A DNA stretch of 64,000 bases from an uncultured delta proteobacterium (GCA_963794325.1 CAWCDG010000002.1:352001-416000); one strand, 5' to 3'. Numbered from the stretch's first letter, positions 11,122 to 64,000 are shown. The notes: generated from the sequence alone by a model not told the origin. Numbers and translations: made by a program.

Positions 11122-12190
11122 TTCGTCGGTAGATGGCAAAGGACGAGCTCCGATCGAGCTATGGATTGCTGGTGCCGCTGCAATCCTACTCGGCGCTCTG
11201 TGCCTTCTTGTACTAAGGCCTTTTATATCTGCCTCGTTGTGGGCGGTGATCCTCTGCTTCACGACCTGGCCGATGTTCCTGAGGCTGGAATCGATTCTGG
11301 GCGGACGACGAACACTGTCGGCGCTGCTAGCTACTTTGTTCCTGGCCGCGGTTATAGTCGTTCCCGTTGCGATCCTTGGAGCCACGCTGGCTGACAACGT
11401 ATCGAGCTTGATCGCGGCAAGTCAGAAACTCATCCAGCAGGGCCCTCCGAGTCCGCCTGACTGGGTCGCGAGTGTGCCGCTGATTGGCAGCCGCCTCGCT
11501 GACTATTGGAACTACTTGAATGAGAGCAGTTCGGTGAGGCTGCAGGAGTTAGCGCGGCTATTGCCTGCTGCCAAAACAATCGTCATATGGGGCGGTGGCG
11601 CTTTGGCCGCCGGAATCTTTCAGATCACTTTGAGCTTACTGATTGCGTTCTTTTTCTATCGCGACGGACAAGCCGCGGCGAATCAACTCCACGCCGCGCT
11701 TCGTCGGATCGCAGGGGGGAGCGGCGAGCGCCTTCTTGATCTCGCGGGCGCGACAATTCGGGCCGTCGTTTACGGTGTTCTTGGAACCGCACTTCTGCAG
11801 GGCGTAGTCGCCGCTATCGGCTTCGCTATCGCGAGAGTCCCTGGAGCTGTATCGCTGGGATTCGTCACCTTTGTGATGTCGTTTATTCCAGGCGGACCGG
11901 TGATCGTCGCGGCACCGGCTGCCTTCTGGCTCTATCGGCAAGGATCGATGGCGTGGGCGGTCTTTATGCTGGTGTGGGGATTGATGGTCGGGATGCTGGA
12001 CAATGTCGTGAAGCCTTTGCTCATCAGTCGCGGCGGATCGACCCCGATGATTCTCGTAATGTTAGGAGTTCTAGGAGGAGCGCTCGCCTTCGGTGTTATC
12101 GGGATGTTCCTTGGACCGACGCTGGTGGCATTGGGATATAGCCTTTTGGAGCAATGGGCCGTGTCCGCGAGCGAAGTGCGGCAAGCTTGA
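11102..12190 (+). CDS. AI-2E family transporter (YdiK-like)
   Basis: Polytopic membrane protein with 'DNVVKPLLISRG...GVLGGALAFGVIGMFLGP'. Confidence 0.88.
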   Translation: MSIPMADSSVDGKGRAPIELWIAGAAAILLGALCLLVLRPFISASLWAVILCFTTWPMFLRLESILGGRRTLSALLATLFLAAVIVVPVAILGATLADNVSSLIAASQKLIQQGPPSPPDWVASVPLIGSRLADYWNYLNESSSVRLQELARLLPAAKTIVIWGGGALAAGIFQITLSLLIAFFFYRDGQAAANQLHAALRRIAGGSGERLLDLAGATIRAVVYGVLGTALLQGVVAAIGFAIARVPGAVSLGFVTFVMSFIPGGPVIVAAPAAFWLYRQGSMAWAVFMLVWGLMVGMLDNVVKPLLISRGGSTPMILVMLGVLGGALAFGVIGMFLGPTLVALGYSLLEQWAVSASEVRQA

Positions 12191-46838: not shown

Positions 46839-47013
46839 AGTTGAATCTCGTGTTAATAGGTCTGTCCGCACGATTCAAGGTTTCGACGTTCATCAGTTCG
46901 ATCGTGATCCTTCCACCAAGACCGTCATTGCGCCTAAACCGAATAGAATGCATGAGAGCGAGCGTATGCGACGACGTCGCGATGCCATCCTCCATTCCCG
47001 ACGACACCTCATC

Positions 47014-47043
47014 ATCACCCATAATTTTATCACCCATAATTTT
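47014..47043. repeat. Tandem 15-bp direct repeat
   Basis: ATCACCCATAATTTT twice in the divergent intergenic region. Confidence 0.7.
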
Positions 47044-47200
47044 CCGTGCTATTTTGAGCATGGTTTTAGTTAGCACCGGCGATTTCCTTGTCTTTAGGTG
47101 GGCGTAATGATACTAACTCGCTACCTTACAACTTTGTGCCCGCGATAAGCTTTATCGTCAGCCTAAAGTTTTAAGTCCGCAGGGTGGGGAGTAATCACAT

Positions 47201-50200: not shown

Positions 50201-50770
50201 ACCGCGACCGCGACCGCGACGGCGACCAGGACCGCCACCGCAACTGCAACTTCGACCTCAACTGGATCGTCTACTGCAACCGCGACCGCGACGGCCACCA
50301 GGACTGCTACGGCGACGGCGACTTCGACATCAACCGGTTCATCAACGCCGACTGCGACCGCAACCAGGACTGCGACCGCTACTGCGACCGCAACCGCTAC
50401 CGCAACGGCGACTCAGACCGCGACTCCCACCGCGACCGCGACCGCGGGAACCGGACACATAAAGGTGATACCGAAGAAGAAGCTGAACCTGAAAGCGTTG
50501 CCGAGCGCGATGGCCACGCGCACTATCACCATCGACAATACGGGTACTGGCCCGCTGACCGCTAATGTCAGTCCCACGTCGCTTAATCCTCCGTTCTCGG
50601 AGACGGGCGCGGCAGCCGGGATTGTTATCCCCGCGATGAGCTCTCATGAGGTGATAGTCACCTACTCGCCGACGAAGAAGGGAAAGTCGAAGACCTCGGT
50701 CACTATCACGAGCAACGATCCCAAGCATAAGAAGGCGATCAAAATATTGATACAAGGCACGGCGAAATAG
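47201..50770 (+). CDS. Secreted SBBP-repeat (beta-propeller) surface protein with Thr/Ala linker and C-terminal Ig-like domain
   Basis: FERNQGQ, VNYLIG, YPGVD, LVIDP, repeated YSTYLGG / AVDS.GN.YVTG / NAFVAK; long TATATAT linker. Confidence 0.85.
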   Translation: MTVRNSGVAPRARYRTAAVSIGVVFVMAIVVLTLGSRMGAAVSTASAALPGASSGSATSNVASPANKAEAIAKAKGMIASMPTYFERNQGQTDPSVKYLSRSGRYSMFLTGDATTVISMVGGQIHKGPAFAMSNPPAKPDEDRLVESDVRIRLVGANTHPAVAGLEPLPGRVNYLIGDVKSKWHTNIPTFSRVKFSGVYPGVDVVHYGIGDSLEYDIVAAPGADTSKIKLAVEGNATTAIDKDGNLQIITAAGVVVMHKPIVYQQSADGSRTPVGGGFVLAKDGTIENRIQRRDVSFQLAAYDHSRELVIDPVASILVYSTYLGGTASSRGPVNLEQFGGVTGGTALTVADLGLDVALDSANNAYVTGIAYSKNFPTTAGAFQTTLKGANAQPNTNPNAFVAKFNYSSASNAASLVYSTYLGGAGDQVPGDAGNGDGDLGFGVAVDAGNQAFVVGQTYSSGTDTTTGFPGTHLCGAFGQTNDQGAASTNVGFVSKLNSTGSDVIWSCYIDGSDNATESRVALYPVGCGATVGTQCKAYMSGSTQSTIAQGFPGTANRFQMDLRATSGKSNATFIVVHEDGQSLDYATQYGGTGNGTNADAGVAVAVDSNGDGYITGATFSTDLTLANAAFSTYEGGGNSPKTSNAFVAQFNPNQAGSVPNTASLIYATYLGGHGASGTVNITFPVSKSITLTVGDLGTGILVDSSFDIWVTGLTASTDFQKIPGNVGTSFQSHNEAGSRTDCTPNTANPPATAAFVMQLDPVHQTTSNQVRYSTYFGGCGIQVAAPMGFGTGSIGFGDAATGIAAVGSKIYLTGATTSGTLAGHDFPLSANALACNSAGGYRLDDNQSAGFSFGGGLIDIPIVAFASELDTSQAMASNELVFSTLLGGTGTADLGGGIAVDSNGNLVVAGLTYSTDFPITPNAFQFANKGNKNSSTNAFLTVLDPTGSSCPTPFPTPTATATATGATATATPTATATATNTATATATGTTGATATATATRTATATATATRTATATATSTSTGSSTATATATATRTATATATSTSTGSSTPTATATRTATATATATATATATQTATPTATATAGTGHIKVIPKKKLNLKALPSAMATRTITIDNTGTGPLTANVSPTSLNPPFSETGAAAGIVIPAMSSHEVIVTYSPTKKGKSKTSVTITSNDPKHKKAIKILIQGTAK

Positions 50771-50799
50771 ACGAGTAGGTCTCGACAGACGCGCGTAAT

Positions 50800-50831
50800 A
50801 AAGCGGCGAGCCTTAGGGCTCGCCGCTTTTT
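50800..50831. terminator. Bidirectional rho-independent terminator
   Basis: AAAGCGGCGAGCC-TTAG-GGCTCGCCGCTTTTT between convergent genes. Confidence 0.8.
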
Positions 50832-50889
50832 CATTCAGAATACAGCGGTCCGCGCGCGACAACGGAGCCCGGCCATAATACTGAAAAAA

Positions 50890-51696
50890 TCAAATCACAA
50901 TCCCACGATGCGCCCGCACGCTAAGTGAGTATCGTTCCCGCGCTCGGCTAAGCCGCACCGGCGCCGCGAACGCGCTCGACAGCATCGCCGACGTCAGCAC
51001 CTGCGCACGCGGTCCGGCCGCGAGCACGCGACCCGACTTCAGCACCAGCACATGTGAGAATATCGGTACGACTTCTTCGACATGGTGGGTGACCAGTACC
51101 ATTGTCGGCGCTCCTCGAGCACGGGCGATGCGCTGCAAAAATTGCAGGAAATGCTCGCGTGCGACCGGGTCGAGCCCCGCGCACGGCTCGTCGAGGATCA
51201 TCAACCTCGGCGATGCCATCAGCGCTCGTCCTATCAGCACGCGCTGGCGCTCGCCTTGCGATAGATATCGCCACGGACGATCGCGCAGGTCGCGCGCCTC
51301 GATACGACGCAATATTGCGTCGGCGGCGCGCCGATCCTCGGCGCGCATTTCACCCCAATAGCCGATTTGCGCATAGCGTCCGCTGACGATGGCTTTGAGA
51401 GCGGTCTCGCTGTCGTCCATCATCTGATGCACGCTCGAGCTGACCAGCCCAATTCGCGTCCTCAGCTCGCGCCAATCAAATCTCCCGTAAGTCTCACCAA
51501 GCACGCGAATCTCGCCCGCGGTCGGCGGCAGATATCCGGTCAGCGCCCGCAACAGCGAAGTCTTCCCTGACCCGTTGGCTCCAAGAATCGCCCAATGCTC
51601 GCCGCGCGCAACCCGCCAATCAACCGACTCAAGAATCACAGCCTCCCGCTCAACCCGCAGCGAACTCACTTCAATCACAGGCACACTAGATTTCAT
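50890..51696 (-). CDS. ABC transporter ATP-binding protein (ModF/YlmA-like)
   Basis: Walker A GANGSGKT, LSQGE signature, Walker B ILDEP, THH. Confidence 0.9.
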   Translation of the reverse strand: MKSSVPVIEVSSLRVEREAVILESVDWRVARGEHWAILGANGSGKTSLLRALTGYLPPTAGEIRVLGETYGRFDWRELRTRIGLVSSSVHQMMDDSETALKAIVSGRYAQIGYWGEMRAEDRRAADAILRRIEARDLRDRPWRYLSQGERQRVLIGRALMASPRLMILDEPCAGLDPVAREHFLQFLQRIARARGAPTMVLVTHHVEEVVPIFSHVLVLKSGRVLAAGPRAQVLTSAMLSSAFAAPVRLSRARERYSLSVRAHRGIVI

Positions 51697-51748
51697 CGTG
51701 CGCAAACTTTTAACAGCCCGCCTTGTCTGAATGCGAGCCTCCAGATTC

Positions 51749-51770
51749 GTAGGACGGAATTTATTCCGTC
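51749..51770. repeat. GTAG-type REP-like hairpin
   Basis: GTAG followed by GACGGAAT-TT-ATTCCGTC, a perfect 8-bp stem. Confidence 0.5.
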
Positions 51771-51853
51771 GGATTTCCCGCACTGGCAGAAAAGTTCAGG
51801 GATGAACTGTTCAGCCTTATGCAATCTCTTTCCCCGGCGCACAATGCCCCTCG

Positions 51854-53014
51854 ATGCAGCACCTCATTACACGCACCGGCGGTGAAAGCGAGACGCAGGC
51901 GGGCAAACTGATTCCTTCGTTCGTGATCGATACCGCCGGTGCGCCCGCCACCGCGCCGGCCTCCGGAGACTTATCCGCCTCAGCTCCCGAATGGATCGAG
52001 CTGCTCCCGTCGGGCGTCTTCTACGGCCGCGATGGACGCGGGCCGTTTCGCCTCGACGATCCGGCCGCGGTGATCGAATCGACGACCGCATTGCAAATGA
52101 ACGCGGGCATCCCGATTGACTACGATCATGCCACCGACTTCGGTGCGCCCGAAGGACGGCCCGCTCCCGCCGCCGGATGGATTCGCCAATTCGAAGTGCG
52201 TGACGGTGCGGTGTGGGGCCGGGTCGAATGGACCGCGCGCGCATCGAGTTCGATCGTCGCGCGCGAGTACCGCTACGTCTCGCCCGTGTTCCAGTTCGAT
52301 CCGAAAGACGGAAGCGTGACGCGGCTGCTGCGAGCCGGGCTCACCAACAATCCAAATCTTCATTTGACCGCGATTGCGGCGTCGCAAATATCGGCGTCCG
52401 ACAACCAAACGAAGGACCAACAGATGGAATTTCCAACTCAGGAATTGCGCGACCTGCTTAACCTCGAGGGCGATGCGACTGTCGCCGATATCGTCGCAAA
52501 AGTGCGCGAACTGCGCGCGGCCGGCGATGCGGCGTCGTCACAGTCGATTAGCACGCATGCACACGACCCCGCGCACTACGTCGCAATCGCCGAATTCGAG
52601 CGCGCGCTGACTGAGCTGAACGCGCTCAAAGCGGAGCACGCACGCGAACGCGCCGCGCATACGGTGGAAGAAGCGATTCGCGCGGGCAAGCTGGTACCCG
52701 CGCAGCGCGAATGGGCGATCGCGTACTGCGCGGCGGATGCGCGCGGGTTCCAGGCCTTCGCGGCCAAGCAGCCGTCCATCCTCGGCGAAAATCTCGGGCT
52801 GTCGGGAGAGCCGCCTGCCGACCGGCGCGCCGGCGGGCTCAACTCGGCGGAGCTCGCAATCTGCGCGCAGCTCGGCCTCAAGCATTCCGAGTTCATCCGC
52901 CGCAAGCGCGGCCGCGCGGACTTCCTGAGCCTCGAACGCGCCGATGCGGATCTGCGAAACGCGGCAGCCGCGGAACGCGGACCTTACGATAACCGAACAA
53001 CGAGGCGCTCTTAA
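51854..53014 (+). CDS. Mu-like prohead protease/scaffold (gpI)
   Basis: WIELLPSG, RDGRGP, IDYDHAT, APAAGWI, VEWT, YRYVSPVF, GLTNNPNL; helical scaffold C-terminal half. Confidence 0.9.
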   Translation: MQHLITRTGGESETQAGKLIPSFVIDTAGAPATAPASGDLSASAPEWIELLPSGVFYGRDGRGPFRLDDPAAVIESTTALQMNAGIPIDYDHATDFGAPEGRPAPAAGWIRQFEVRDGAVWGRVEWTARASSSIVAREYRYVSPVFQFDPKDGSVTRLLRAGLTNNPNLHLTAIAASQISASDNQTKDQQMEFPTQELRDLLNLEGDATVADIVAKVRELRAAGDAASSQSISTHAHDPAHYVAIAEFERALTELNALKAEHARERAAHTVEEAIRAGKLVPAQREWAIAYCAADARGFQAFAAKQPSILGENLGLSGEPPADRRAGGLNSAELAICAQLGLKHSEFIRRKRGRADFLSLERADADLRNAAAAERGPYDNRTTRRS

Positions 53015-53048
53015 TACTGAAAAAACTCGCGCTCTTAATACTGAAAAA
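53005..53048 (+). repeat. Tandem 20-bp direct repeat containing boxA-like CGCTCTTAA
   Basis: GCGCTCTTAATACTGAAAAA at 53005-53024 and 53029-53048. Confidence 0.75.
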
Positions 53049-53057
53049 GGTGAAAAG

Positions 53058-53540
53058 ATGGCGGCTCTAACCAATTCGCGAAATACGCCCGAGATGGCCG
53101 ACGGCGGCAGGATGCGCGTTTACCCGGTCGAGGCGAACACCAACGTTTACCTCGGCGGGATGGTCGCGCTCAACGCGGCCGGCAACGCGGTGCCGGCGTC
53201 GGCGACGACCACCGTCGCAAATGCGCTCAAGGTCGTGGGGCGCGCGGAATACGTGAAAAACGGAATCCCCGGTCAGAATGCGATCAACAATCCCGGCGCC
53301 GCCGCCGCGATTTCGATCGCCGCGCGCAAGGGAGTGTTCCTCTACGCGACCGACGGCTCGGTCGGCGCAGCCCAGGTCGGACTCGTCTGCTTCGCGCTCG
53401 ACGACAACAACGTTACCGCCACCGATCGCGCAAGCGGTGCCAATGTCCAGCAATACGCGGCGGCCGGCATTGTCGTCGCGATCGATCCAAGCGGCCAGGT
53501 CTGGGTGGATTTCTGGCATCAAGCGACCGCATCCGCATGA
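53058..53540 (+). CDS. Capsid cement/decoration-like protein
   Basis: MAALT..RNTP, YPVEANT..Y.GGMVAL, G..CFALDD..V, VWV; lies between protease and capsid as in Mu-like phages. Confidence 0.65.
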   Translation: MAALTNSRNTPEMADGGRMRVYPVEANTNVYLGGMVALNAAGNAVPASATTTVANALKVVGRAEYVKNGIPGQNAINNPGAAAAISIAARKGVFLYATDGSVGAAQVGLVCFALDDNNVTATDRASGANVQQYAAAGIVVAIDPSGQVWVDFWHQATASA

Positions 53541-53578
53541 CGATGACGTTCACCGGCTAAAAAGAGAGGAAATACTAA

Positions 53579-54523
53579 ATGGAAATCAGCGCAGCGAATC
53601 TGACCGCATTGTTCACCGGCTTCGACGTCGTCTTCCAGCGCGGGTTCGAAAAGCCGCCGTCATACTACGAGCAGATCACCAGCGTCGTGCGCTCGGCCTC
53701 GCGCCAGACTACCTATCCGTGGCTCGGACGCACTACCAAGTTTCGCGAATGGCTGGGCGACAGGGTAATCCAGGCGCTCGAAACGCACGAGTACACAATA
53801 GTCAATCGGAATTTCGAAGATACAGTGGCTATTGATCGAAACGACATCGAAGACGACACCTACGGCGCCTATGAGCCGATCATCGAGCAGCTCGGATGGG
53901 ACACCAAGGTGCATCCCGACATGCTGCTGTTCGCAATGATCAAGGACGCAGTAGCTAATCCCGGCGACGTCGTCGGCTTCGACGGCGTCCCGTTCTTTTC
54001 GGCGAGCCATCCCGTCGGCCTGATGGGTCAGACCGGAAACACCGCGGCGAATATCAACTCAAGCGGATCGGGTGCCTACTGGTATCTGATCGACGCGTCG
54101 CGAGTGATTCGTCCCTTCATCTTTCAGCTCCGTCGCGAATACGCAGTGACGCGAATGACCAATGTCGCCGACGAGGCGGTCTTCAACCGCCGCGAATTCC
54201 GCTACGGCGTGGACGGCCGCGCCAACACCGGCGTCGGCCTGTGGCAGTTGGCCTACGCCAGCAACACCGATCTCAGCAATCCGACCAACTACGGCGCGGT
54301 GCGCGCCGCGATGCGAGCGTTCAAAACCGATGCGGGACAGCCGTTTGGCGCGCTCTCGAGCCGCGACGGTGTGTACCTGCTGGTCCCCCCGACTCTCGAA
54401 GAAGTCGCGCGGCAACTGTTGAACTCAGAGTTCATGGCCGGTGCCGGCGCGAGCGCGAACGTCGCGACCTCGAACATCTGGCGCAACAGCGCGGACCTTA
54501 TCGTCAGCGAGTTCCTGGCATAA
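53579..54523 (+). CDS. Mu-like major head subunit (gpT)
   Basis: YPWLG...REWLGDR, N..FE.TV...R.DIEDD, FDGVPFF...HP, WYLID, PFIFQ.R, YGVDGR, WQLAY, LLVPPTLE. Confidence 0.92.
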   Translation: MEISAANLTALFTGFDVVFQRGFEKPPSYYEQITSVVRSASRQTTYPWLGRTTKFREWLGDRVIQALETHEYTIVNRNFEDTVAIDRNDIEDDTYGAYEPIIEQLGWDTKVHPDMLLFAMIKDAVANPGDVVGFDGVPFFSASHPVGLMGQTGNTAANINSSGSGAYWYLIDASRVIRPFIFQLRREYAVTRMTNVADEAVFNRREFRYGVDGRANTGVGLWQLAYASNTDLSNPTNYGAVRAAMRAFKTDAGQPFGALSSRDGVYLLVPPTLEEVARQLLNSEFMAGAGASANVATSNIWRNSADLIVSEFLA

Positions 54524-54619
54524 GGACGCGGTGAAAAGTGGAACAGCGATGAATCCAGTTTCCCTGAGCCGGCCAGACGCGGGTCCCCCTCCTGCCCGCA
54601 GCGCCGGAGTGCATGGCAA

Positions 54620-54661
54620 CTCTCCGCGGGCGCGCTTCCATTGTTCAGCGCCCGCGGAGAG
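54620..54661 (+). terminator. Perfect 14-bp hairpin downstream of the capsid gene
   Basis: CTCTCCGCGGGCGC (54620-54633) pairs with GCGCCCGCGGAGAG (54648-54661); only a weak U-tract follows. Confidence 0.5.
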
Positions 54662-54706
54662 ACCTTTCAGTCGAATAGTCACTTGCGATGCGACGAGGTT
54701 AGTACA

Positions 54707-55141
54707 GTGAGTTACGCGACCGCCCAGGACATGATCAATCGATACCCTAATCGGGATCTGGTCCAACTGACTAATGAAGATCCAACCGCGACGACCATAA
54801 ACAACGCACCGATCACTCAAGCCCTGGCCGACGCCTCCGCGGAAATCGACGGATACATCGAAGGCCGCTTCACCCTCCCGCTGACGGATCCCCCCGCCGT
54901 CCTCAACCGTCTCACCACCGATATCGCGATGTACCGCATGCAGTCGCTCCGCCCTCTGCACGACCTGGAAGATGCGCGGAAACGATATGAGGACGCGGTC
55001 GCGATGCTCGTGAAGGTAGCGGCCGGCGAGCTCACCCTCGGATTGTCGGCTGACGGCCAGGAACCACCAGTGACAGAAATGCAAGAGAAGGTACAAGGGC
55101 CTGATCGCACATTCAGCCGCAAAAATCTGAGGGGCTACTGA
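54707..55141 (+). CDS. Mu gp36-like (DUF1320) head-tail connector
   Basis: SYATAQDM..RY...L.QLT, ALADASAEIDGY...RF.LPL, DIAMY, RYEDA...L..VA.G...LG. Confidence 0.88.
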   Translation: MSYATAQDMINRYPNRDLVQLTNEDPTATTINNAPITQALADASAEIDGYIEGRFTLPLTDPPAVLNRLTTDIAMYRMQSLRPLHDLEDARKRYEDAVAMLVKVAAGELTLGLSADGQEPPVTEMQEKVQGPDRTFSRKNLRGY

Positions 55142-55142
55142 A

Positions 55143-55964
55143 ATGGGCGTGACGCTTGACGCGCCGTGGAACGGGTTGGTCTTCACACCGCCCTCCGCGA
55201 TCGACATCGCGACGATAGAAGACTCGATCGTTACTCAACTGCGTTCACAAATCAGCTCGATCGAAATCACACACTACCCGGATCGTCCCGAAACCTGGCG
55301 CATGACCCATCGCGTGGGAGCGGCGTTGGTGATGTACAAGGGCGCGCACTACGGCGACCTGCTCGACACCGCAGCAACAATCCAGGAACGCAAACTCGAG
55401 TTCGAGATCTCAATCATGATGCGCGATCTAGGATGGGCCGTCGGTGGCGAGGCGGCGGGGCCTAGTCCGGGCGCATACGCAATTATCGAAGCGGTCCGGA
55501 CCGCGCTGACCGGCTTTGAGGTTCCCGGCTGCCGCAAAATGTTCCCGGTGAGTGAGAAATTCGTGAAGCGCGACAAGCAGGGCGGCGTATGGACGTACGC
55601 TTCGACCTTCGCGCTGAGCACGGTTGCAGTCGAAGGCTCGCAGGCCGATGACTTTCCATTCTTCACCAAGGGCATCGCGCTCGAAGAAGGGGGAGAAAGT
55701 ACACTCACCGTCGGCGCGTCGGCATACTCGTTCAACTCGAATCTCCAGGTTCAGCTTCCCCACGGTAATGCGTTTGCAGTCAGCGTCACAGGTCCCGGCA
55801 ACGCGCAGTTGATCGAAGGCGCGGACTTTTCGGTGGATCGCGCGAACGGAATAGTCATTGCGATTCCCGGCGGTGTGATTTCAGCCGGCGAAACGGTGCA
55901 GATTGCGTACTCATACGCCGACGGGGCTATCGCGACCGCAGGCCAGACCGAGCCGACTAACTAA
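55143..55964 (+). CDS. Mu gp37-like neck/tail-completion protein with an extra C-terminal domain
   Basis: IEDSIV..L, YPD.P, GA.LV.Y.G, GAY..IE.VR..L.GF, GVW.Y; position between gp36 and sheath. Confidence 0.75.
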   Translation: MGVTLDAPWNGLVFTPPSAIDIATIEDSIVTQLRSQISSIEITHYPDRPETWRMTHRVGAALVMYKGAHYGDLLDTAATIQERKLEFEISIMMRDLGWAVGGEAAGPSPGAYAIIEAVRTALTGFEVPGCRKMFPVSEKFVKRDKQGGVWTYASTFALSTVAVEGSQADDFPFFTKGIALEEGGESTLTVGASAYSFNSNLQVQLPHGNAFAVSVTGPGNAQLIEGADFSVDRANGIVIAIPGGVISAGETVQIAYSYADGAIATAGQTEPTN

Positions 55965-56005
55965 TCGGACTAATAGTAACTCATCCGACTGAGTAAAGGT
56001 GATAC

Positions 56006-57547
56006 ATGCCAGCCAGTTTCCTGCATGGAGTTGAAGTAATCGAAGTACCTAATGGGCCGGTGCCGGTCACCGTCGTCAAATCGGCGGTGATCGGATTGGT
56101 CGGGACGGCGCCGACATGGGCGGTGGCGCCGCCAATAGTAGCGGCGGCGCTGAATACGCCGACGCTGGTGTCGTCGGCGCTCAACGCCGCAGAGTTCGGG
56201 CCGACAGTTCGCGGATACACGATTCCGTATGCCTTAGCAGCTATCCAGGCGCAAGGCGCGGGACAGGCGATCGTCGTCAACGTATTCGATCCGACGAGAC
56301 ACTTCACTGCCATAGCTGCGACCGCATTCACGTTCAACGCGCAGAACGCTATCAACCTCGGGCACATGGGAGTGTCGAATGTAGTAGTCACTAGTAATCC
56401 AACTGGTACTATGTACATCGCGGGCACTGACTACACGCTCGACGCGGTGAACGGAGCGGTATCGCTGGTGCCAATCGCCTCGGGAGGACATATTGCCGCC
56501 GGCGCCAGCGTGTTGATTGCGTTCGACTACGCCGATCCGTCGAAGGTGACGGACGCTGATGTGATCGGGGCAATCACCGGCGGCGTGTACACGGGACTTC
56601 AGGTATTCCAGACGACCTACGGCACGTTGGGATTCTTTCCGAAGATCCTGATCGCACCGAGCTATTCGCAAGACCCCACTGTCGCGACCGCTCTCGATGC
56701 GATGGCGACCAAGGTTCGAGCGATGGCGCTGGTCGATTCGCCGCCCGGGACGTCGGCTGCCGCGGCGACAACGAATCGCGGCGTAGTCGGCAACAGCTTC
56801 GCAACTTCGAGCAAGCGAACGATTCTCTGCTACCCGCAAGAGACGTTTTTCGACACTGGAATTGTACCGACCGGAGTGACGCTTAACGCTTCCGGAATCC
56901 CGCTGACATCGCAATTCAACGCGAACGCCGTGGGGCCATATTCGCAGTGGGTGGCTGGAGCGATGGCGGCGAAGGACCTGGCGCAAGGTTACTGGTGGTC
57001 GCCGTCGAACACGCCGGTTGCTGGAATGCTCGGGCCTGATGTTCAGCTCTATGCGTCCATTCTCGACGCGTCGTCGGACGTGAACAGTCTGAACGCCGCG
57101 GGAATCGTGACCGTGTTCAACGCATTCGGCACAGGACTTCGCGTGTGGGGAAACCGGAGCGCGGGGTACCCGACTGCGACCACGCCGGACAATTTTATCT
57201 CGGTACGTCGCACGATGGATGTAATCGAGGAATCCGTGGAGCTGGCGATGCTGCAGTTTATCGATCAGCCGATTTCGAACGCGCTGATCGATGCGATCCT
57301 GGCCAGTGCGAATGCCTTTATCAGATCACTCATCCAGCGTGGAGCATTGGTCGCGGGGGCGGCGAGCTTCAACCCGGCAGAGAATCCATCGGCACAAATT
57401 GCGGGAGGCCAGCTGGTATTCGATATCGACGTAATGCCGCCGCCGCCTGCGGAAAGAATCACGTTCGAAGCATTCATCGATGTAACGTTGCTGCAGCAAC
57501 TAGGGAGCACGAGCCCGATCACTGTAGCTGCGGGGGCGACGGCATAA
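56006..57547 (+). CDS. Contractile tail sheath protein (P2 FI-like)
   Basis: FLHGVEVIEV, SAVIGLVGTAP, PKILIAP, GYWWSPSN, LNAAGIVT, G.RVWGNR, FISVRRT, PPPAERITF. Confidence 0.93.
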   Translation: MPASFLHGVEVIEVPNGPVPVTVVKSAVIGLVGTAPTWAVAPPIVAAALNTPTLVSSALNAAEFGPTVRGYTIPYALAAIQAQGAGQAIVVNVFDPTRHFTAIAATAFTFNAQNAINLGHMGVSNVVVTSNPTGTMYIAGTDYTLDAVNGAVSLVPIASGGHIAAGASVLIAFDYADPSKVTDADVIGAITGGVYTGLQVFQTTYGTLGFFPKILIAPSYSQDPTVATALDAMATKVRAMALVDSPPGTSAAAATTNRGVVGNSFATSSKRTILCYPQETFFDTGIVPTGVTLNASGIPLTSQFNANAVGPYSQWVAGAMAAKDLAQGYWWSPSNTPVAGMLGPDVQLYASILDASSDVNSLNAAGIVTVFNAFGTGLRVWGNRSAGYPTATTPDNFISVRRTMDVIEESVELAMLQFIDQPISNALIDAILASANAFIRSLIQRGALVAGAASFNPAENPSAQIAGGQLVFDIDVMPPPPAERITFEAFIDVTLLQQLGSTSPITVAAGATA

Positions 57548-57571
57548 CTCGCCCGACACGAGAGGTACACA

Positions 57572-58090
57572 ATGAACATCCAGATCAACTCACTGACTAA
57601 TGCGAATATATACATCGACGGCATTGGACTACTCGGGCGAGCTGAAGAGATCGAGATCGCGAATCCCAAGCACAAGATGATTGACTACAAGGGCTTGGGG
57701 ATGGCCGGCACGGCTGAGTTGTGGGCGGGTGTCGAAAAGCTCGAGTCAAAAATCAAGTGGGCGTCTTTCGACGCGGAGACGCTCACGATGTCGAGCAGCC
57801 CATTTCAAACGCACTCCTTTCAAGCGCGCGGGAATCTCGAGCAGTACACCAGCCAGGGAAGAACCGCGCAGCTTCCGGTGGTGTATCTGATGACCGGGGT
57901 CTTCAAAGATGCGGGGAGTCCCACCTTCCGGCAACATCAGATGGTCGAGACTACTTCAATAGTAAGTATCTACCACTGTGAACTATTCGTCGCCGGCGTC
58001 CAAATATACTTGTACGACGTATTCGCCAATATTTACGTAGTAGGCGGCGTCGATCAACTGAGTACGTTCCGATCGAGTCTTGGCGGGTGA
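57572..58090 (+). CDS. Major tail tube protein (P2 FII-like)
   Basis: NANIYIDG..LLGRAEEI..., GMAG....GVEKLE; 172 aa directly after the sheath. Confidence 0.88.
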   Translation: MNIQINSLTNANIYIDGIGLLGRAEEIEIANPKHKMIDYKGLGMAGTAELWAGVEKLESKIKWASFDAETLTMSSSPFQTHSFQARGNLEQYTSQGRTAQLPVVYLMTGVFKDAGSPTFRQHQMVETTSIVSIYHCELFVAGVQIYLYDVFANIYVVGGVDQLSTFRSSLGG

Positions 58091-58097
58091 GTGACTA

Positions 58098-58463
58098 ATG
58101 AACACCGACGACACAACAGTGAATGGAGTGCGAATAGGTGGCAAGGAAGCCGCTGACGAAGCGGGTGCACGATCGATCGAGCTGCCGTCGGGCGCTCATG
58201 CCGAGGTGCGAAAAGGCTATGGGCGAGACCTGATGCGGGCGCAACGGGCAGCGGTCGGCGGAGACGCGAGCGCAGTGATATTTGCTTTGATCGCCGAGGT
58301 AGCTCGCGTAAATGGATGCAAGATCGTGTACGAGGACGTGCTCGAGATGGATCTGGCGGACGTTATGGCGTTACAGGCGGAGGTGATTGACGAAAATTTC
58401 GACCGCCCTCCGCAGCGAGCTTCGCAGGTCTCATCCAATTCGGATTCTCGGTCCAGGAATTGA
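58098..58463 (+). CDS. Tail assembly chaperone (P2 gpE / Mu gp41-like)
   Basis: Position after the tube; 'GRDLMRAQ...EDVLEMDLADV..L'. Confidence 0.8.
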   Translation: MNTDDTTVNGVRIGGKEAADEAGARSIELPSGAHAEVRKGYGRDLMRAQRAAVGGDASAVIFALIAEVARVNGCKIVYEDVLEMDLADVMALQAEVIDENFDRPPQRASQVSSNSDSRSRN

Positions 58464-58561
58464 GCGGGATGGATTTTGCGGAGCTGTCGTACTGGCTGGA
58501 CGCAATGATTGAGTATCAACGGATGTGCGTCGAACGCGGCGGAGGGGCGAGTCGTGACTAG
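58098..58561 (+). CDS. Extended chaperone (E+E'-like) made by -1 frameshift at A AAT TTC (58394-58400)
   Basis: In-frame X XXY YYZ heptamer. The -1 frame reads FRPPSAASFAGLIQFGFSVQELSGMDFAELSYWLDAM... to TAG 58559-58561, resembling GpE'-type 'EL..M...EL..W'. Confidence 0.7.
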
Positions 58562-58621
58562 TAATCGCAGTGACTATACCAGAGTGTGCGTAGTGAGTAA
58601 TCCACAAGAGACGGTGAGGCG

Positions 58622-58906
58622 ATGGGAATAAGACTATTCGTTGGCAATCTGAGTTTTTCGTTGGGCGATGGGGATTTGCGTGAGGCCTTTGCCGAGATAG
58701 GCGGTGTAGATCGGGCTGAGATCGTGCGCGATCGGTTCGACGGACGCTCGCGCGGATTCGGCTTTGTCGAAATGAAGACTCAGGACGACGCCGCGGTCGC
58801 GCTGCGGGCAATGAACGGCAAAGAACTGGCAGGGCGTCCTCTGCGAGTGGAAGCAGCGACCTCGCATCGTCGCCCGTTCGACCGCAACGCCGCGCGCCCG
58901 CAGTAG
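58622..58906 (+). CDS. RRM (RNP-1) RNA-binding protein
   Basis: RNP2 LFVGNL, RNP1 RGFGFVEM, 'MNGKELAGRPLRV'; GAGG RBS. Confidence 0.93.
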   Translation: MGIRLFVGNLSFSLGDGDLREAFAEIGGVDRAEIVRDRFDGRSRGFGFVEMKTQDDAAVALRAMNGKELAGRPLRVEAATSHRRPFDRNAARPQ

Positions 58907-58939
58907 AAACACCGAAAGACGGGGCATCGCAGCGAGCAC

Positions 58940-59774
58940 ATGGCAAAGCAATCCAGACCAATCAACCCGACAGGGGGGACCAGGCGCGCGGACGCCGCGC
59001 GCGCGCTTAGGCAGCTTGATCGAGTGACTAGTATCGCGCGCGAGAACCGTCGAATCTCGCGGGCTGCGGCGAGCGTTGCGCGGGCTCGAGAGTTTCGTTG
59101 GCAGCCCTCTGCGGGGGCTTCGCTTTTGAAGCAGGCTCAGTTTGTTGAAGAAGACTCGCGCATTGAGCGAGGAACTGCTCGCGATGGCTCTGGCGGCGGT
59201 TCAGCGTGCGAGTTGGGGCGGCAGGACTAATATCGCGACTGCAGAACCTGGGCGGCGTAGCGCGGCGGCATTGGTCGAGGCCTCGAGTCGCTCGCGCCGA
59301 CAGATTCCGGAATTGTTTCAGGCGATGAAGGCTTTGGCGCGGATTGAACGCTCGGTCGAGTCGGGAAGCGCGGGACGAGCGATTTCAGAGCTGCGAAAAT
59401 ACTCGATGCCTACGTCAGTGTCCAAGTCTAATACGACGGGCCGAGGGCTTGGGAGTCCGGAAGCGCGACAACCATCGCTCGCCGGCGCGGGCAAATTAGC
59501 GAGCGTCCGTATTGCGCGATCGATTCGCGCAGCGAAACTGCCCGCGAGTGTTTCGCAGCGGGAGTTCGCGCAGCCGTCGGGCGACGTGCGCGGTTCTAAT
59601 CAAACCGGCGGGCGAGGCGGGATTACGATCAACTCATCGCCGACAGTCGTGATCAATGCGCCTGCGAGCGGCGCCATGCAGAATGATGTGATTGGCGCAT
59701 TGCGAGCGCATCGCGAAGAACTGTTCGATGAGTTGAAACGGGAATCGGCGCGACGCGAGCGCGCGCAGTTCTGA
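58940..59774 (+). pseudogene. Short tape-measure-like protein in two overlapping frames (about 277 aa if joined)
   Basis: Occupies the tape-measure slot before gpU. C-terminus 'ITINSSPTVVIN...LRAHREELFDELKRESARRERAQF' resembles tape-measure termini. Span is 835 nt (3n+1). Confidence 0.5.
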
Positions 59775-59779
59775 GGAGA

Positions 59780-60370
59780 ATGCACTTGTTCGCAGCATTG
59801 GGCGACATTCAATTCGAAGTGGTTGGCTCTCCGGAAACCTATGAATCCGCGGCGGCGTATGACTTCGCCGAGCAGAAGGTGATCGAGAGTAAGCCGCTGC
59901 TGCAGTGGGTTGGCAACGATCTCGAACGGCTGAAGTTCGAGCTGATGTGGCACGCGTCATTCACGAATCCGGGGGCGCAGCTGGCGCAGTTGCGCGCGAC
60001 GGCCGCAGAGCACCTCGCACTGCCGCTGGTCTTTGGCAACGGGGGATTTCGCGGCTTCTTTGTCATCGAATCGATCAATGTGAAATCGCAGCAACTGTCG
60101 GCGGGCGGATCCCCGATTGCAATCCGCGTTGCCCTGGCACTCAAGGAATCGATAGCAGATCCTCTGCTGCTGTCCAGAACGCAGCCGCTGACTGGATTGT
60201 CGCCGCTGGGAATCGTGATTGCGCAGCAGGAGGCGGGTGGCCGTGCGAACGCGATCGCGTCCGGCGTGTCGGTATTACTCAGTATTCCGTTAGCGGCGGG
60301 GACAAGCGGTCCCAATCTTGAGGCAGGCGATGTGCCGGCCCCAGCTATCGTGAGGAGCGCGGGGCGATGA
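59780..60370 (+). CDS. Phage tail protein (P2 gpU-like)
   Basis: FAALGDIQF, KPLLQWVG..L, LPLVFGNG...G.FVIESI. Confidence 0.82.
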   Translation: MHLFAALGDIQFEVVGSPETYESAAAYDFAEQKVIESKPLLQWVGNDLERLKFELMWHASFTNPGAQLAQLRATAAEHLALPLVFGNGGFRGFFVIESINVKSQQLSAGGSPIAIRVALALKESIADPLLLSRTQPLTGLSPLGIVIAQQEAGGRANAIASGVSVLLSIPLAAGTSGPNLEAGDVPAPAIVRSAGR

Positions 60371-60609
60371 TGCTTTCGGGACGTTTAATACTTCACGTCA
60401 CGACGGCGGGTGAACGGTGGGACCTGCTAGCCTGGCGATACTACGGTGATCCGACTGACTATTCGCCGATTATAATGGCTAATCCGAATGTAGCTATTGA
60501 ACCGGTATTCGATGCCGGCATCTCAATAGCGATACCGCTTCAGCAGAAGAGCGCGATGGCGACGGCCAACCTGCCGCCCTGGAAAGTATCACAAGCGGTG
60601 AGCGGGTAA
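60367..60609 (+). CDS. Tail protein X (LysM-like)
   Basis: T.AGERWDLLAWRYYG......I..ANP, LPPWK. Confidence 0.85.
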   Translation: MMLSGRLILHVTTAGERWDLLAWRYYGDPTDYSPIIMANPNVAIEPVFDAGISIAIPLQQKSAMATANLPPWKVSQAVSG

Positions 60610-61625
60610 TGGCTGCGGGGGCATTTAATATAGTTCGATCGCCGCAGTGGATACTCACTTATTCGGATGTGAACATTACGGCAGATGTATCGGAGATGGT
60701 TCTTGCAATCAGGTATATCGATCGGCTCGACGGCACCTCGAGCGATCTGGAGATTGAACTCGAAGACTCAGGGAAGCTGTGGCAGGGGCCGTGGTATCCG
60801 GTGATCGGCGACATAGTCAGTCTGCAAATTGGCTATAGCAATGAGCTATTGCTGGACTGCGGAACATTCCAGATTGACGAGTTGGAATCGGATGGGCCGC
60901 CCGACGTTATGAGACTGCGATGCCTTGCCGCGTACATCACGACCGCGATGCGGACCGCAAATACTGTGGCCTACGAAAACATGGGCATCGTAGAAATCGT
61001 GGCGCAAATCGCGGCGAAGTATGGATTGACGGTGGTGATGGCGTCGTCCGAATCGGAAAACGACATAACGTTTGCGCGCGTGACGCAGCGGCGTCAGATG
61101 GATTTGGAATTTCTGAAGCGCCTGGGGAGAGAGCACAATTTTGATTTCACGGTGCGTGCCGGTCAACTGATCTTTTACGAGCGAGCGGCGCTCGAATCTA
61201 TTCCGGCCGCGACGTTGATTACGCGATCTGACACTTTGCGGTTCGCATTTCGGAACCGGGCGCGCCGAATCTACGACGCCGCGGACTTCTCGTACTTCGA
61301 TCCTGATACGAAAGAGCTGATTACTCAGTCGGTACCGTCGGACGGATCTTCGCCGACGGGCGATACCCTGAAAATCGTTGCGCGCTGTGAAAATGCAGAG
61401 CAGGCGCAGGTCAAAGCAGCAGCCGGACTTCATTTGCACAACATGGTGTTGGTGGACGCGTCGATTGAAGGACCCGGGAACACGGTGCTGGTGGCCGGGA
61501 ACAACGTGCAGCTCAGTGGATGGGGCGCGCTCGATGGGAAGTATTTGATCGAGACCGCAAAGCATCACATGGCGCGCGCGACGGGATACACAACATCAAT
61601 TGCAGCGCGACGGATTAACCCATGA
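60609..61625 (+). CDS. Baseplate hub / late control D family protein
   Basis: Y.D...G.S..LEI.LED, L.IGY, G.F.IDE....GPP, Q....DLEFL.RL, G.YLI....H....GY.T. Confidence 0.88.
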   Translation: MAAGAFNIVRSPQWILTYSDVNITADVSEMVLAIRYIDRLDGTSSDLEIELEDSGKLWQGPWYPVIGDIVSLQIGYSNELLLDCGTFQIDELESDGPPDVMRLRCLAAYITTAMRTANTVAYENMGIVEIVAQIAAKYGLTVVMASSESENDITFARVTQRRQMDLEFLKRLGREHNFDFTVRAGQLIFYERAALESIPAATLITRSDTLRFAFRNRARRIYDAADFSYFDPDTKELITQSVPSDGSSPTGDTLKIVARCENAEQAQVKAAAGLHLHNMVLVDASIEGPGNTVLVAGNNVQLSGWGALDGKYLIETAKHHMARATGYTTSIAARRINP

Positions 61626-62314
61626 ACGACATAATTGAATACCGCGAGCGATTTGCTGCGCTGAACCCCACGTTCCGGGTCGGGATTGTGCAGGCGCAGG
61701 ACCCCGCGCATGCGAAGGTGCGGGTGGTGTTTCCGGATTACGACGAAATGATCAGCTGGTGGCTGCCGGTTGTTTTTGCAAAGACCCAGAACGACAAGGT
61801 GTACTGGATTCCGGATATCGGCGAGCAGGTCGTTTGCCTGATGGACCTGCGCGACGAGGCCGGCGCGGTGCTGGGTGCGATCTATTCGAGCGCCGACACG
61901 CCGCCAGTAAACAGCGCTGACAAGTTTCATCTCGCGTTCAGGGACGGCGCGCACTTCGACTACGATCGCGTCGCGCATCTGCTCGATCTCCTTTTCCAGG
62001 ACACGACGGAACTCAAATACGACGCTCGGGTGCATCTGCTCGATCTGAAATTTCAGGATCAGGCGGAGCTGCAGTATGACGGTACCGAGCATGTTCTGAG
62101 CATGAATCTGCCGCAGGGTGCGGCGTTCAATCTCTCGGCGAACGGTGCGCAGATTCAGATCGACTCGAACGGCAACGTCGTCATCAAGAGTGGAGGGCTG
62201 GTTCAGATCGGGAACGGCCCGCTGGCAGGTGTCGCTCGGCTGGGCGATCGAGTGCAAGTCGGCGAGGCGACCGGAACGATCGTGAGCGCGAGCACCGACG
62301 TGCTGGCGGGATGA
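61622..62314 (+). CDS. Baseplate assembly protein V (central spike)
   Basis: OB-fold 'KVRV.FPD.....WWLPV', P.IGEQVVCL, G.VLGAIYS; beta-repeats. Confidence 0.88.
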   Translation: MNDIIEYRERFAALNPTFRVGIVQAQDPAHAKVRVVFPDYDEMISWWLPVVFAKTQNDKVYWIPDIGEQVVCLMDLRDEAGAVLGAIYSSADTPPVNSADKFHLAFRDGAHFDYDRVAHLLDLLFQDTTELKYDARVHLLDLKFQDQAELQYDGTEHVLSMNLPQGAAFNLSANGAQIQIDSNGNVVIKSGGLVQIGNGPLAGVARLGDRVQVGEATGTIVSASTDVLAG

Positions 62315-62733
62315 CGATGCCGGCAGGCGCAATTACACTTGCAGATATCAGATCGGCTGATTGGTCGTTGGCTCTAGGAGCCATCGGCGAAGTAGTGCAG
62401 GGGATCGCCGACGTCGAACAGTGTTTGGGAATTATTGTGACGACGCCGCGCGGGAGCGACCCTTTGCGGCCGACCTTCGGCGCGAATATCTGGCGGTACA
62501 TCGACTTTCCGATCAGTCTTGCGCTACCCGCAATCGTCAGCGAACTGACCTCGGCGATCACAATTTGGGAGCCGCGCGTGAATCTTGTTTCGGTGACGGC
62601 GCAAAGCGTCAACGATGCGACTGCGCAATCGGGCGCGCAGCTCGACGTCACGCTCAGCTGGCGGCTCAAGCTGGGCGTCACCGGGGCTCCCGTTCAGATC
62701 ACGACCGTGACAATCCCGGGAGCGGCGGTCTAG
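62311..62733 (+). CDS. GPW/gp25-family baseplate protein
   Basis: II.TTPRGS.PLRP.FG....YID.P, AI..WEPRV. Confidence 0.9.
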   Translation: MTMPAGAITLADIRSADWSLALGAIGEVVQGIADVEQCLGIIVTTPRGSDPLRPTFGANIWRYIDFPISLALPAIVSELTSAITIWEPRVNLVSVTAQSVNDATAQSGAQLDVTLSWRLKLGVTGAPVQITTVTIPGAAV

Positions 62734-62765
62734 CCGGGGCCGCGCCGACGCGATGAAAGGATGAG

Positions 62766-63938
62766 TTGATGGGTGCAGGAATTCCGTCGCTGCCGCCGCC
62801 GGTGTTCGTCAACGACGCGGACGGTCTCGATCCAAACCTGATCCTCGCGGACATGATCGCCGAGTTCGAGGCGGCGTCGGGCCGGACGCTTCAACCGGCC
62901 CAGGTGGAGCGCCTGCTCATTAATTTGTATGCGTACCGCGAATCGCTGGTGCGCAACGCGATTCAGTATGCGGCCGAGCAGAATCTGCTCGCGTTCGCAT
63001 CGTTCCCGATGCTCGATTATCTAGGTCAACTGTTGAGCGTCAATCGATTGGCCTCGCAGCCCGCGGTGACGACGATTCAATTCACCTTGACCGGCGCGCT
63101 GACGGTGCCGTTTACGATTGCTGCGGGAACCCTGGTCGGCACGAGCGATGGGCAGTTTGCATTCGCAACCAGCGCGACGATCACACTCGCGGCCGGTGCA
63201 ACCATCGCAAGTGTCGCTGCCGCCGCGACGGCTCCAGGAGCGGGTGCGAATGGATACCTGGCGGGACAAGTCAGCGTCCAGCTCAATCCGAACAGTTTGA
63301 TCGCGAGCGTGACGAACACCAGCACGACCACCGGTGGCTCTGCTCCCGAGACGGACGATCATCTGCGCACGCGCATCCAGGCTGCGCCGAATCAATTCAG
63401 CGTCGCGGGACCGAGCGGGGCGTACCGGTTCTTTGCGATCGGCGCGGACCCGTCGATCGTCGATGCGCAAATTGTCAGTCCCTCTCCCGGATCGGTGAAT
63501 GTGTATGTGCTGACGGGACCGGTGACGCAACAGCCTGCGCCGGCGCCGAACAGCGCGGGAGTCGCGAACTCCGCGTTGCTTGCAAAAGTCGCGACGGTGC
63601 TGAATGCCGACACGATGCGTCCGTTGACCGACACCGTGAACGTGCTTGCAGTGACCGAGGTGGACTACCAGATCACCGCGACGGTGACGCTGTATTCGGA
63701 TGCCGATCCCACTGCGACGATCGTCGCGGCAACGGCGGCCGTCACCGAACTGGCGCTCGAGCTGGCGGCCAAGATTCAGCGCGACATCGTGCCGAGCCAG
63801 ATAATTGCGGCGCTATCGGTGGCGGGCGTCTATGGCGTGACGCTCACGTCGCCGACTCTGACGACGCTCACCTATGGGCAGTGGGCGAACTGCACGACGA
63901 TCGCGCTGACGACAGCGTTCAGCACGGAGCATAGCTGA
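62766..63938 (+). CDS. Baseplate J/gp47-family protein
   Basis: AYRE.L.R, LDYLG, ETDDHLRTRI, SVAGPSGAY, PGSVNVY, RPLTDTV. Confidence 0.92.
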   Translation: MMGAGIPSLPPPVFVNDADGLDPNLILADMIAEFEAASGRTLQPAQVERLLINLYAYRESLVRNAIQYAAEQNLLAFASFPMLDYLGQLLSVNRLASQPAVTTIQFTLTGALTVPFTIAAGTLVGTSDGQFAFATSATITLAAGATIASVAAAATAPGAGANGYLAGQVSVQLNPNSLIASVTNTSTTTGGSAPETDDHLRTRIQAAPNQFSVAGPSGAYRFFAIGADPSIVDAQIVSPSPGSVNVYVLTGPVTQQPAPAPNSAGVANSALLAKVATVLNADTMRPLTDTVNVLAVTEVDYQITATVTLYSDADPTATIVAATAAVTELALELAAKIQRDIVPSQIIAALSVAGVYGVTLTSPTLTTLTYGQWANCTTIALTTAFSTEHS

Positions 63939-64000
63939 TGCCCGAGCTGTCGGCCGCTCCTTCGATTAACGATACGCGCACGCAGGCGCTGCTGGAGTTG
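63938..64000 (+). CDS. Probable tail protein I (P2 gpI-like), partial at window end
   Basis: ATG overlaps the J stop (TGATG); MPELSAAPSINDTRTQALLEL...; assigned by synteny only. Confidence 0.55.
   Translation, partial: MPELSAAPSINDTRTQALLEL

Follow-up and report, generated by a model that had tools for sequence, protein, structure and literature searches.

A split, vertically inherited BcepMu-like element of the Binataceae, probably maintained as a particle system of the gene transfer agent type

The described gene transfer agents (GTAs) stem from a handful of independent domestications; no GTA is known to come from a transposable Mu-like phage, to have a P2-type contractile tail or to occur in the Binatota. 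The locus considered here lies in a 64,000-nucleotide stretch of DNA from an uncultured bacterium of the family Binataceae (GCA_963794325.1 CAWCDG010000002.1:352001-416000, that is C2:352001-416000; hereafter the window), whose source genome, G000, comprises 4.45 Mb in 10 contigs and is 85% complete. Positions 51854-64000 hold an operon of the BcepMu type, running from head protease through baseplate, as judged from Pfam and PHROGs matches, by which all protein families were assigned. The phages BcepMu and phiE255 have the same order of late genes as the Binataceae element, from lysis and gp25/gp26-like genes through TerS, TerL, portal and a protease-to-fibre series, and they share with it a Mor-family activator; the sheath of G000 is 43% identical to theirs. 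BcepMu further has a protease gene with a nested scaffold and a frameshifting tail assembly chaperone, both of which have likely counterparts in the element. The closest isolated capsids, at 40-42% identity, are those of Ralstonia phage RS138 (42%) and the Pseudomonas B3/D3112-like siphophages, which have the same head module order, including a virion structural protein between protease and capsid, but which carry a transposase, early genes, F, G and a non-contractile tail.

From the BcepMu-like phages the Binataceae element differs on several counts. It is without the transposase and transposition proteins, GemA, the rest of the early block, F (gp30) and G (gp31), whereas the RS138 and BcepMu records both contain transposase, transposition proteins, early genes, F and G. 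Its repressor stands directly beside Mor, and an RRM gene lies in its tail operon; its tape measure is about 278 amino acids long, against 846 in BcepMu; and it carries host genes inside and is vertically inherited. On balance the element is probably a host-maintained, domesticated remnant of a BcepMu-like phage, passed on vertically within the Binataceae, and acts as a GTA-like particle system whose packaging genes lie at a second locus.

The second locus is on contig C3, where the single Mu portal of G000 is found; this packaging half occupies C3:91.7-100.2 kb. A host carboxyltransferase is followed by an S24/HTH CI-type repressor on the minus strand, Mor, small open reading frames for membrane proteins and lipoproteins, a gp25-like membrane protein, phrog_436, TerS, TerL and the portal; beyond the portal come an opposite-strand methyltransferase and then host genes. 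Even if the two contigs abutted, portal and protease would be separated by at least 376 kb, as calculated from contig positions. The sequence-only reading of the window had taken the early and packaging genes to be absent. Transposase, F and G were indeed not found, but the repressor, TerS, TerL and portal are all on C3. A prophage that had lost its left half, proposed as the null model, does not describe this genome, since the left half lies elsewhere in it. The Mu-type head module of G000 comprises gp27 TerS, TerL, gp29 portal, gpI protease and a single-copy gpT capsid, the last in the window, with F not found. Several intergenic spaces at the C3 locus contain repeats (about 9990-10130, 11030-11300, 12560-12800 and 14400-14640 in L004) of two types, each seen twice, which create spurious reading frames with repeated peptide stretches. 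Similar repeats match many sites in the genome and also occur upstream of the protease in relatives; they resemble insertions of the miniature inverted-repeat transposable element type.

No means of movement accompanies either half. The Mu transposase, F and G were not found in the 85% complete assembly of G000 (PF09299, PF02914, PF04233, PF05069), PF04233, the family of F, being among those without a match. In relatives with a contiguous element the 1.4-2.4 kb from portal to capsid is filled by the protease and the small virion-protein gene, which leaves no room for F. PF02914 occurs in only four of 101 family genomes, the unpublished G087 among them, and always on a contig without the element. 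In nine genomes in which the element was mapped (G000, G004, G012, G016, G039, G041, G047, G077 and G095) the order is conserved: repressor, Mor, lysis, gp25-like, phrog_436, TerS, TerL, portal, an insert where there is one, and protease to fibre. In none of these nine does the element contain or adjoin a gene for a transposase, an integrase or replication, and in all of them the gap between repressor and Mor is too small for a transposase. Housekeeping genes directly abut the repressor in G012 and G041, of two further genera (FolD, a permease, an esterase, a CoA-transferase and polyphosphate kinase). Among the marks of a Mu-like phage, the element has the late activator of the Mor/C family and has neither the MuA-type DDE transposase nor the transposition ATPase; it has, as GTAs and other viriforms do, a phage-like structural set without genes for replication, integration or transposition.

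These observations bear on the possibility that the element is a temperate phage of the Mu-like kind that is still active, whose lineage divides along with those of its hosts and whose mode of movement has gone unrecognised. Such a phage would account for the complete late region with repressor and Mor, for the nine genomes in which portal and protease are still adjacent, for contiguous loci annotated in phage order, and for the 112 contigs in IMG/VR that carry the capsid. The long IMG/VR contigs, however, carry the same host genes and are therefore chromosomal fragments rather than free phage genomes. Host genes are lodged inside the element, its halves in G000 are far apart, and PF02914, where present, is elsewhere in the genome; together with the lack of transposase, integrase and replication genes in the nine mapped genomes, this leaves an active phage close to refuted and very improbable indeed. 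Ordinary Mu-like prophages do also circulate in the Binataceae, as indicated by second, divergent capsids or portals of 49-63% identity on other contigs (G016:C15:1814-2800, G016:C30, G081:C39 and G017:C621) and by Mu-type transposases, again on other contigs (G039:C5, G041:C41 and G057:C16).

The distribution of the capsid points to descent within a single family. It is present in 64 of 100 other Binataceae genomes, which represent 22 of 30 genera, nearly always as a single copy, and in 50 of the 68 high-quality genomes of the family when G000 is counted; the portal is found in 61 of the 100. In a class-level sample the element occurred in all nine Binataceae genomes and in none of 71 genomes from 17 other families. 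A phylum-level sample gave matches in eight of 150 genomes, all at 39-43% identity, which fit ordinary Mu-like prophages. Capsids 74-99% identical were found in public metagenome-assembled genomes of Candidatus Binatus and the Binataceae. A capsid tree was built from 52 rows, with no unpublished genome included; in it, 11 of the 12 genera with more than one row fall on one side of a branch, the exception being due to the divergent copy in G090; genus labels change 19 times, compared with a mean of 41 after shuffling, and none of 200 shuffles gave so low a number. Across 20 genomes, divergence of the capsid from G000 tracks that of RecA (Spearman coefficient 0.90 for identity and 0.78 for synonymous divergence, dS). 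In no pair is capsid dS below RecA dS, and there is thus no sign of recent horizontal transfer. The capsid tree, the RecA-tracking divergence and the restriction to one family are as expected of a vertically inherited GTA or viriform. A RecA tree considered for mapping gains and losses was set aside because it was poorly resolved, with only three starred branches.

The genes are under purifying selection at both loci. Ratios of nonsynonymous to synonymous divergence (dN/dS) were calculated pairwise against G000 by the Nei-Gojobori method for pairs with dS of 0.05-1.5 (Table 1). The 15 structural genes have values of 0.04-0.22, as against 0.10 for the neighbouring host ABC gene, and median dS is 0.6-1.0 for element genes and the host ABC gene alike; the relaxed selection that the sequence-only reading had named as grounds for doubt is not seen. 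Purifying selection thus extends over structural and packaging genes, another trait of GTAs and viriforms. The proposal that the system is host-maintained gains from all of these lines: vertical inheritance, purifying selection, the missing transposase and the host genes lodged inside.

How the element came to be divided can be followed among its relatives, in which portal-to-capsid distances were taken from match coordinates. In nine genomes (G009, G012, G014, G016, G035, G037, G039, G041 and G081), which belong to genera g10, g13, g15 and g17 and form one clade of the capsid tree, the portal is followed directly by the protease and the distance is 1.4-2.4 kb. It is 4.5-10 kb in G002, G004, G021, G027, G032, G047, G051, G086 and G099; 10-15 kb in G029, G048, G065, G074, G077 and G095; and 18-44 kb in G018, G023, G026, G040 (where the two are on opposite strands), G046, G063 and G100. 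In G000 and several others, some of them fragmented assemblies, portal and capsid are on different contigs. The first gene of the insert is the same methyltransferase beside the portal across several genera, and in the genus of G000 the insert continues with o189, o278, more genes, a 1189-amino-acid DUF7948 protein and the ABC ATPase. When G000 is set beside G077 and G095, it is seen to keep portal, methyltransferase, o189 and o278 on C3 and the 1189-residue protein, ABC ATPase and protease on C2, and a 3.1-kb block of its relatives' insert sits at C2:511-514 kb. The pattern fits one early event in which an ancestor within the Binataceae captured a BcepMu-like phage. The phage would then have lost its transposition and early genes, F and G, and persisted under purifying selection; host genes would have lodged at one operon boundary, and some lineages would have lost or damaged the element.

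Several side features of the insert may be mentioned. The methyltransferase (PF13578), o189 and o278 are always on the portal side (L004 16386-18591, C3:100386-102591), and in genus g28 o278 lies directly upstream of the protease; these three may represent cargo, or else head accessory genes that have diverged. The 1189-residue protein, which adjoins the ABC ATPase, diverges fast and is 48% identical in relatives of the same genus. The boundary at which portal and protease part presumably coincides with the start of the P_I late transcript of phage Mu.

It is the retention of the packaging apparatus that argues for a GTA-like role. TerL and TerS, portal, protease, capsid and neck genes have been kept and constrained, which suggests that selection acts to preserve tailed particles with DNA inside. 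Because the two halves in G000, at least 376 kb apart, would not fit into one head, the packaged DNA would be largely that of the host; and since the element can neither copy nor integrate itself, particles filled in this way would act as a GTA-like (viriform) system. Of the three options that the sequence-only reading had offered, a split-locus GTA is the best fit, with terminase and portal unlinked on C3; a portal-less capsid and a capped tailocin are at odds with a Mu portal, TerS and TerL that are all present and under purifying selection.

In such a system DNA damage or some other signal would inactivate the S24-type repressor. Mor would then be made and would activate the late operons in trans, including the protease-to-fibre operon, by way of a conserved block just upstream of the protease. 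Heads would be assembled, the terminase would fill them by way of the portal, the filled heads would be joined to contractile tails by the gp36 and gp37 neck proteins, and the particles would be released by lysis. It is also conceivable, though doubtful, that a GTA of Mu origin has kept Mu's manner of packaging and fills headfuls in situ, starting at a fixed pac site close to the end with the repressor and proceeding rightwards. If so, mobilisation would favour the host genes lodged between portal and protease, along with the chromosomal DNA that lies past them; the element would be a built-in, host-owned device for lateral transduction; and both the conserved RRM protein and the reduction or loss of the tape measure would have arisen as adaptations of the particle, not by accident.

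The main rival to a GTA-like role is a killer particle like PBSX, in which the contractile tail kills competitors and the head with its packaged DNA is a by-product that is not productively delivered. The P2-type tail and baseplate include the most strongly constrained genes of the operon (tube 0.04, sheath 0.11), and the repressor is of the SOS type. The fibre has matches in only two of 80 related loci and the spike-like protein in one, many of the loci ending earlier, and the spike is 30-40% identical elsewhere; such poor conservation is as expected from turnover of target range. Known R-type tailocins, however, have shed terminase, portal, protease, capsid and neck genes, all of which are under purifying selection here, and a tape measure that shrinks, and in one clade is absent from its usual place, is unlike the outcome of selection for an efficient killing tail. 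A killing role is accordingly considered unlikely.

A number of observations weigh against a domesticated, GTA-like system. The worry that the cluster might be patchy and at variable loci is partly borne out. The capsid is absent from 36 of 100 family genomes, scattered on the weak RecA tree; and when G000, G012 and G041 were used as queries, G000 had no outer-flank gene in common with G012 or G041, and these two had none in common with any other genome compared. Within the genus of G000 the outer flanks are shared, and the right flank, where a gene of the Mur-ligase family lies, is shared with one more genus (g1 and g21). The regulators are of phage type rather than host type, the proposed role is deduced from conservation, and the conserved block has no counterpart in the intergenic regions of C3. 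All 13 core genes are kept (at 70% coverage or more in one match) in only 28 of 44 fully covered loci; among the remaining fully flanked loci 10 miss one core gene, three miss two and one misses three, and two loci are clearly degraded, L030 by a deletion from tube to gpW and L023 by many breaks. G077, a complete genome of the same genus, is the one that has lost the tube-to-gpW genes. G000 itself has a tape-measure gene that is frameshifted as assembled and is without the GH108-like endolysin of G077 and G095, about 517 bp having been replaced by 49 bp, so that its own copy may be impaired. Finally, a clade of 11 loci has no tape-measure reading frame between chaperone and gpU.

With regard to these lesions, the deletion in G077 (L107, G077:C2:112001-132000, 14602-15131; L030) leaves a partial tube followed by the 3' part of gpJ. 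The endolysin gene follows Mor in G077, G095, G047, G041 and G039 and is elsewhere in the element in G004, with no match in G012 or G016; the site of its deletion (L004 9341-9431, compared with L106 8697-9221) has a GC-rich hairpin in G000.

Lesions of this kind, with the fragmented copies in G094, G054 and G046, the genomes in which no capsid was found and the repeat insertions that separate genes on C3, might instead mark a defective prophage in slow decay without function, its conservation reflecting history or a few selected genes, such as a repressor that confers immunity. Neutrality, though, cannot hold about 25 genes open at synonymous divergences of 0.6-1.5. The dN/dS of every structural gene resembles that of a host gene, purifying selection is also evident within a single sub-clade, and in many lineages the element has outlasted its splitting by host genes with both halves intact. 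Functionless decay is regarded as rather less probable than a killing role, and a domesticated GTA-like system remains the preferred reading.

Within the window the gene series proposed from the sequence, from protease to gpI, is confirmed by the family matches (Table 1); the description of it as uninterrupted is not, because the tape-measure gene is split. The fine signals that had been noted are all present. The protease gene contains an in-frame ATG at 52424 with AAGGA upstream, which would possibly yield a nested scaffold of the kind annotated in BcepMu; the chaperone gene has a slippery heptamer, A_AAT_TTC (canonical form X_XXY_YYZ), at 58395-58401, after which the -1 frame stays open; and stops and starts overlap at the U/X, X/D, D/V and V/W junctions. 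The virion structural protein probably starts after the protease stop. The right end lies outside the window, as had been supposed. The operon continues with gpI, a 186-residue fibre protein and an 884-residue spike-like protein (C2:415938-420512; PF09684, PF21882 and fibre PHROGs) and ends about 4.5 kb past the window, so that the structural half measures about 16.7 kb from protease to tail fibre; an opposite-strand host gene of the Mur-ligase family and further host genes follow. A Mu early or packaging module directly downstream, which the sequence-only reading had named as grounds for refutation, was not found there. The 884-residue protein has atlas leads to tailspike and beta-helix clusters, all with scores below 0.9, and on these weak grounds it was rejected as a relocated tape measure.

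Table 1. Features of the window and of the C3 locus in G000. Positions are those of the window unless a contig is named. For the repressor, gp25-like and TerS genes dN/dS was obtained at near-saturated distances.
Feature	Position	Strand	Family match or basis	dN/dS
1189-amino-acid protein	47201-50770		DUF7948, SBBP beta-propeller, ASH/Ig-like domains	
Host ABC-transporter ATPase, divergent left neighbour	50890-51696	-	PF00005, E 4e-30	0.10
Perfect 18-bp palindrome GACGGAATTTATTCCGTC	51753-51770 (C2:403753)			
Promoter/operator-like conserved block AAAGTTCAGGGnTGAACTGTTCAGCCTTATGCAA	51791-51824 (34 nt; ends 30 nt before protease start)	+	conservation	
Mu gpI-type head protease/scaffold	51854-53014	+	PF10123, E 1e-70	0.18
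Virion structural protein, protease/capsid interval	52944-53540	+	phrog_1731, E 1e-23, match from residue 39	0.18
Mu gpT-type major capsid protein	53579-54523	+	PF10124, E 2e-92	0.09
Mu gp36-type head completion/adaptor protein	54641-55141	+	PF07030, E 3e-35	0.15
Gp37/tail-terminator-like neck protein	55143-55964	+	PF09646, E 3e-31	0.20
Contractile tail sheath, P2 FI type	56006-57547	+	PF04984, PF17482	0.11
Tail tube, P2 FII type	57572-58090	+	PF04985, E 1e-37	0.04
Tail assembly chaperone	58098-58463, -1 extension to 58558	+	Phage_TAC_7, Phage_TAC_15 (weak)	0.18
Stand-alone RRM_1 RNA-binding protein, between chaperone and tape measure	58622-58906	+	PF00076, E 1e-21	0.06
Tape-measure candidate, in two pieces	58940-59230 and 59142-59774	+	position alone	0.44 (piece)
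gpU (baseplate module 59780-63938, dN/dS 0.12-0.22, begins)	59780-60370	+	PF06995	0.22
gpX	60367-60609	+	PF05489	0.15
gpD-like hub	60609-61625	+	PF24032/PF05954 (weak)	0.13
gpV spike	61622-62314	+	PF04717	0.17
gpW	62311-62733	+	PF04965	0.12
gpJ	62766-63938	+	PF04865	0.12
gpI start	63938-64000, continues beyond window	+	PF09684	
S24/HTH CI-type repressor	C3	-		0.28
Mor late activator	C3		PF08765, phrog_836	
gp25-like membrane protein	C3			0.33
phrog_436	C3		phrog_436	0.16
Mu gp27 small terminase, TerS	C3		PF11985, E 5e-36	0.43
Large terminase, TerL	C3		phrog_2	0.22
Mu portal	C3			0.15

At the left boundary the ABC ATPase, in the genus of G000 part of the block of host genes between portal and protease, adjoins the protease in 36 of 80 related loci. 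Its most likely start is the ATG at 51696, which gives a spacer of 157 nucleotides and agrees with the earlier estimate of about 160. The suspicion of a misassembly near 51.8 kb finds no support in short-read contigs or in the loci that share the junction. A contig from the soil run X1 (record 2, 51421-51896) bridges the ABC/protease junction with no differences, and a 4995-base short-read contig backs the arrangement of G000 from 46426 to 51420.

The conserved block occurs in all 27 aligned upstream regions of the same genus, in which sequence farther upstream cannot be aligned, and with three to eight mismatches in 12 of 40 loci from other genera. In 11 of these 12 it ends 30-36 nucleotides before the aligned protease start; in L066, where the protease match begins at query residue 47, the distance is 132 nucleotides. 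The block may be a Mor-dependent late promoter. It is unique in the G000 genome, and a promoter motif shared by both loci was rejected on this ground and for want of a counterpart on C3; for the same reasons activation by Mor in trans stays an inference. The nearby palindrome was rejected as an operator specific to the element because the genome has 13 copies, both orientations counted. Others are at C2:136409, 136453, 140269, 140314, 306186 and 429744, C4:470266, 912499 and 912593, C7:342801 and C10:45235; several are paired, 44-94 bp apart, and within the C3 locus, at C3:94605, there is a compensated variant. The palindrome may represent a repeat spread over the genome, a hairpin or an operator.

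The tape-measure candidate is identified by position and has no family match in Pfam or PHROGs. The "mini tape measure" of 210 residues in the sequence-only reading is the second piece of the split gene; relatives in the genus have a single reading frame of 253-368 residues at this position. A short-read contig from X1 has one base fewer at 59206 (depth 10.7 of 10.7), which places the two pieces in one frame, so that a single protein of about 278 residues is likely; the frameshift in the window would then be an assembly error or a strain allele. The candidate is short throughout, with 370-507 residues in distant genera, and the dN/dS of its measured piece is the highest in the operon. In the clade without it (L049, L052-L058, L062, L067 and L070) no tape measure is found elsewhere in the operon either, and G020 (L271) and G074 (L270) likewise have no reading frame between RRM and gpU. 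The tail genes of that clade have dN/dS of 0.05-0.15, with sheath, tube and baseplate under strong purifying selection.

The RRM gene is present in 54 of 80 related loci, in most genera, with a median identity of 81%, and is absent from some clades. Its RNP motifs appear intact by eye, and four host paralogues are 39-49% identical to it. It was considered as the C-terminus of a frameshifted chaperone and rejected, since stop codons intervene and it has its own start. We know of no function for an RRM protein in a phage tail operon; a role with RNA cargo is pure speculation.

The Binatota are an uncultured, widespread lineage of soil bacteria. The series found in the Binataceae, from a contiguous element, to one with host genes at one boundary, to separate loci, makes the stepwise break-up of a virus directly observable, and if particles do move host DNA, genes would be exchanged by this path in soil communities that have so far resisted culture. 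Full-text literature searches gave no report joining Binatota or Binataceae with prophages, GTAs or tailocins, and no description of a domesticated Mu-like GTA.

Host-kept particles known from other bacteria offer the closest parallels. The R-type tailocins of the pyocin R2 kind are likewise host-kept and have a P2-type sheath, tube and baseplate, but lack capsid, portal, terminase and neck genes, all of which are present and constrained here; the element is therefore not one of them. Nor, since head genes are present, is it an extracellular contractile injection system (Afp/PVC), and the operon has no AAA+ assembly ATPase of the Afp/PVC type. PBSX of Bacillus, likened here by features, not by sequence, shares chromosomal fixation, head, terminase, contractile tail, repressor and absence of replication genes; it differs in being one contiguous locus with a known killing activity. 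RcGTA of the Alphaproteobacteria (see PMC8987985) resembles the element in that its structural genes, of phage origin, form a set lacking any for replication or integration; they are vertically inherited under purifying selection, are not confined to a single locus and have been lost by certain lineages. It differs in its origin from an HK97-like siphovirus, as opposed to the Mu-like head and P2-like contractile tail found here, which implies an independent origin; and the Binataceae element keeps a CI repressor and Mor of phage type. Although first described as fitting no standard class, the element thus finds its place among domesticated prophage-derived particles, whether of the GTA or of the PBSX-like kind.

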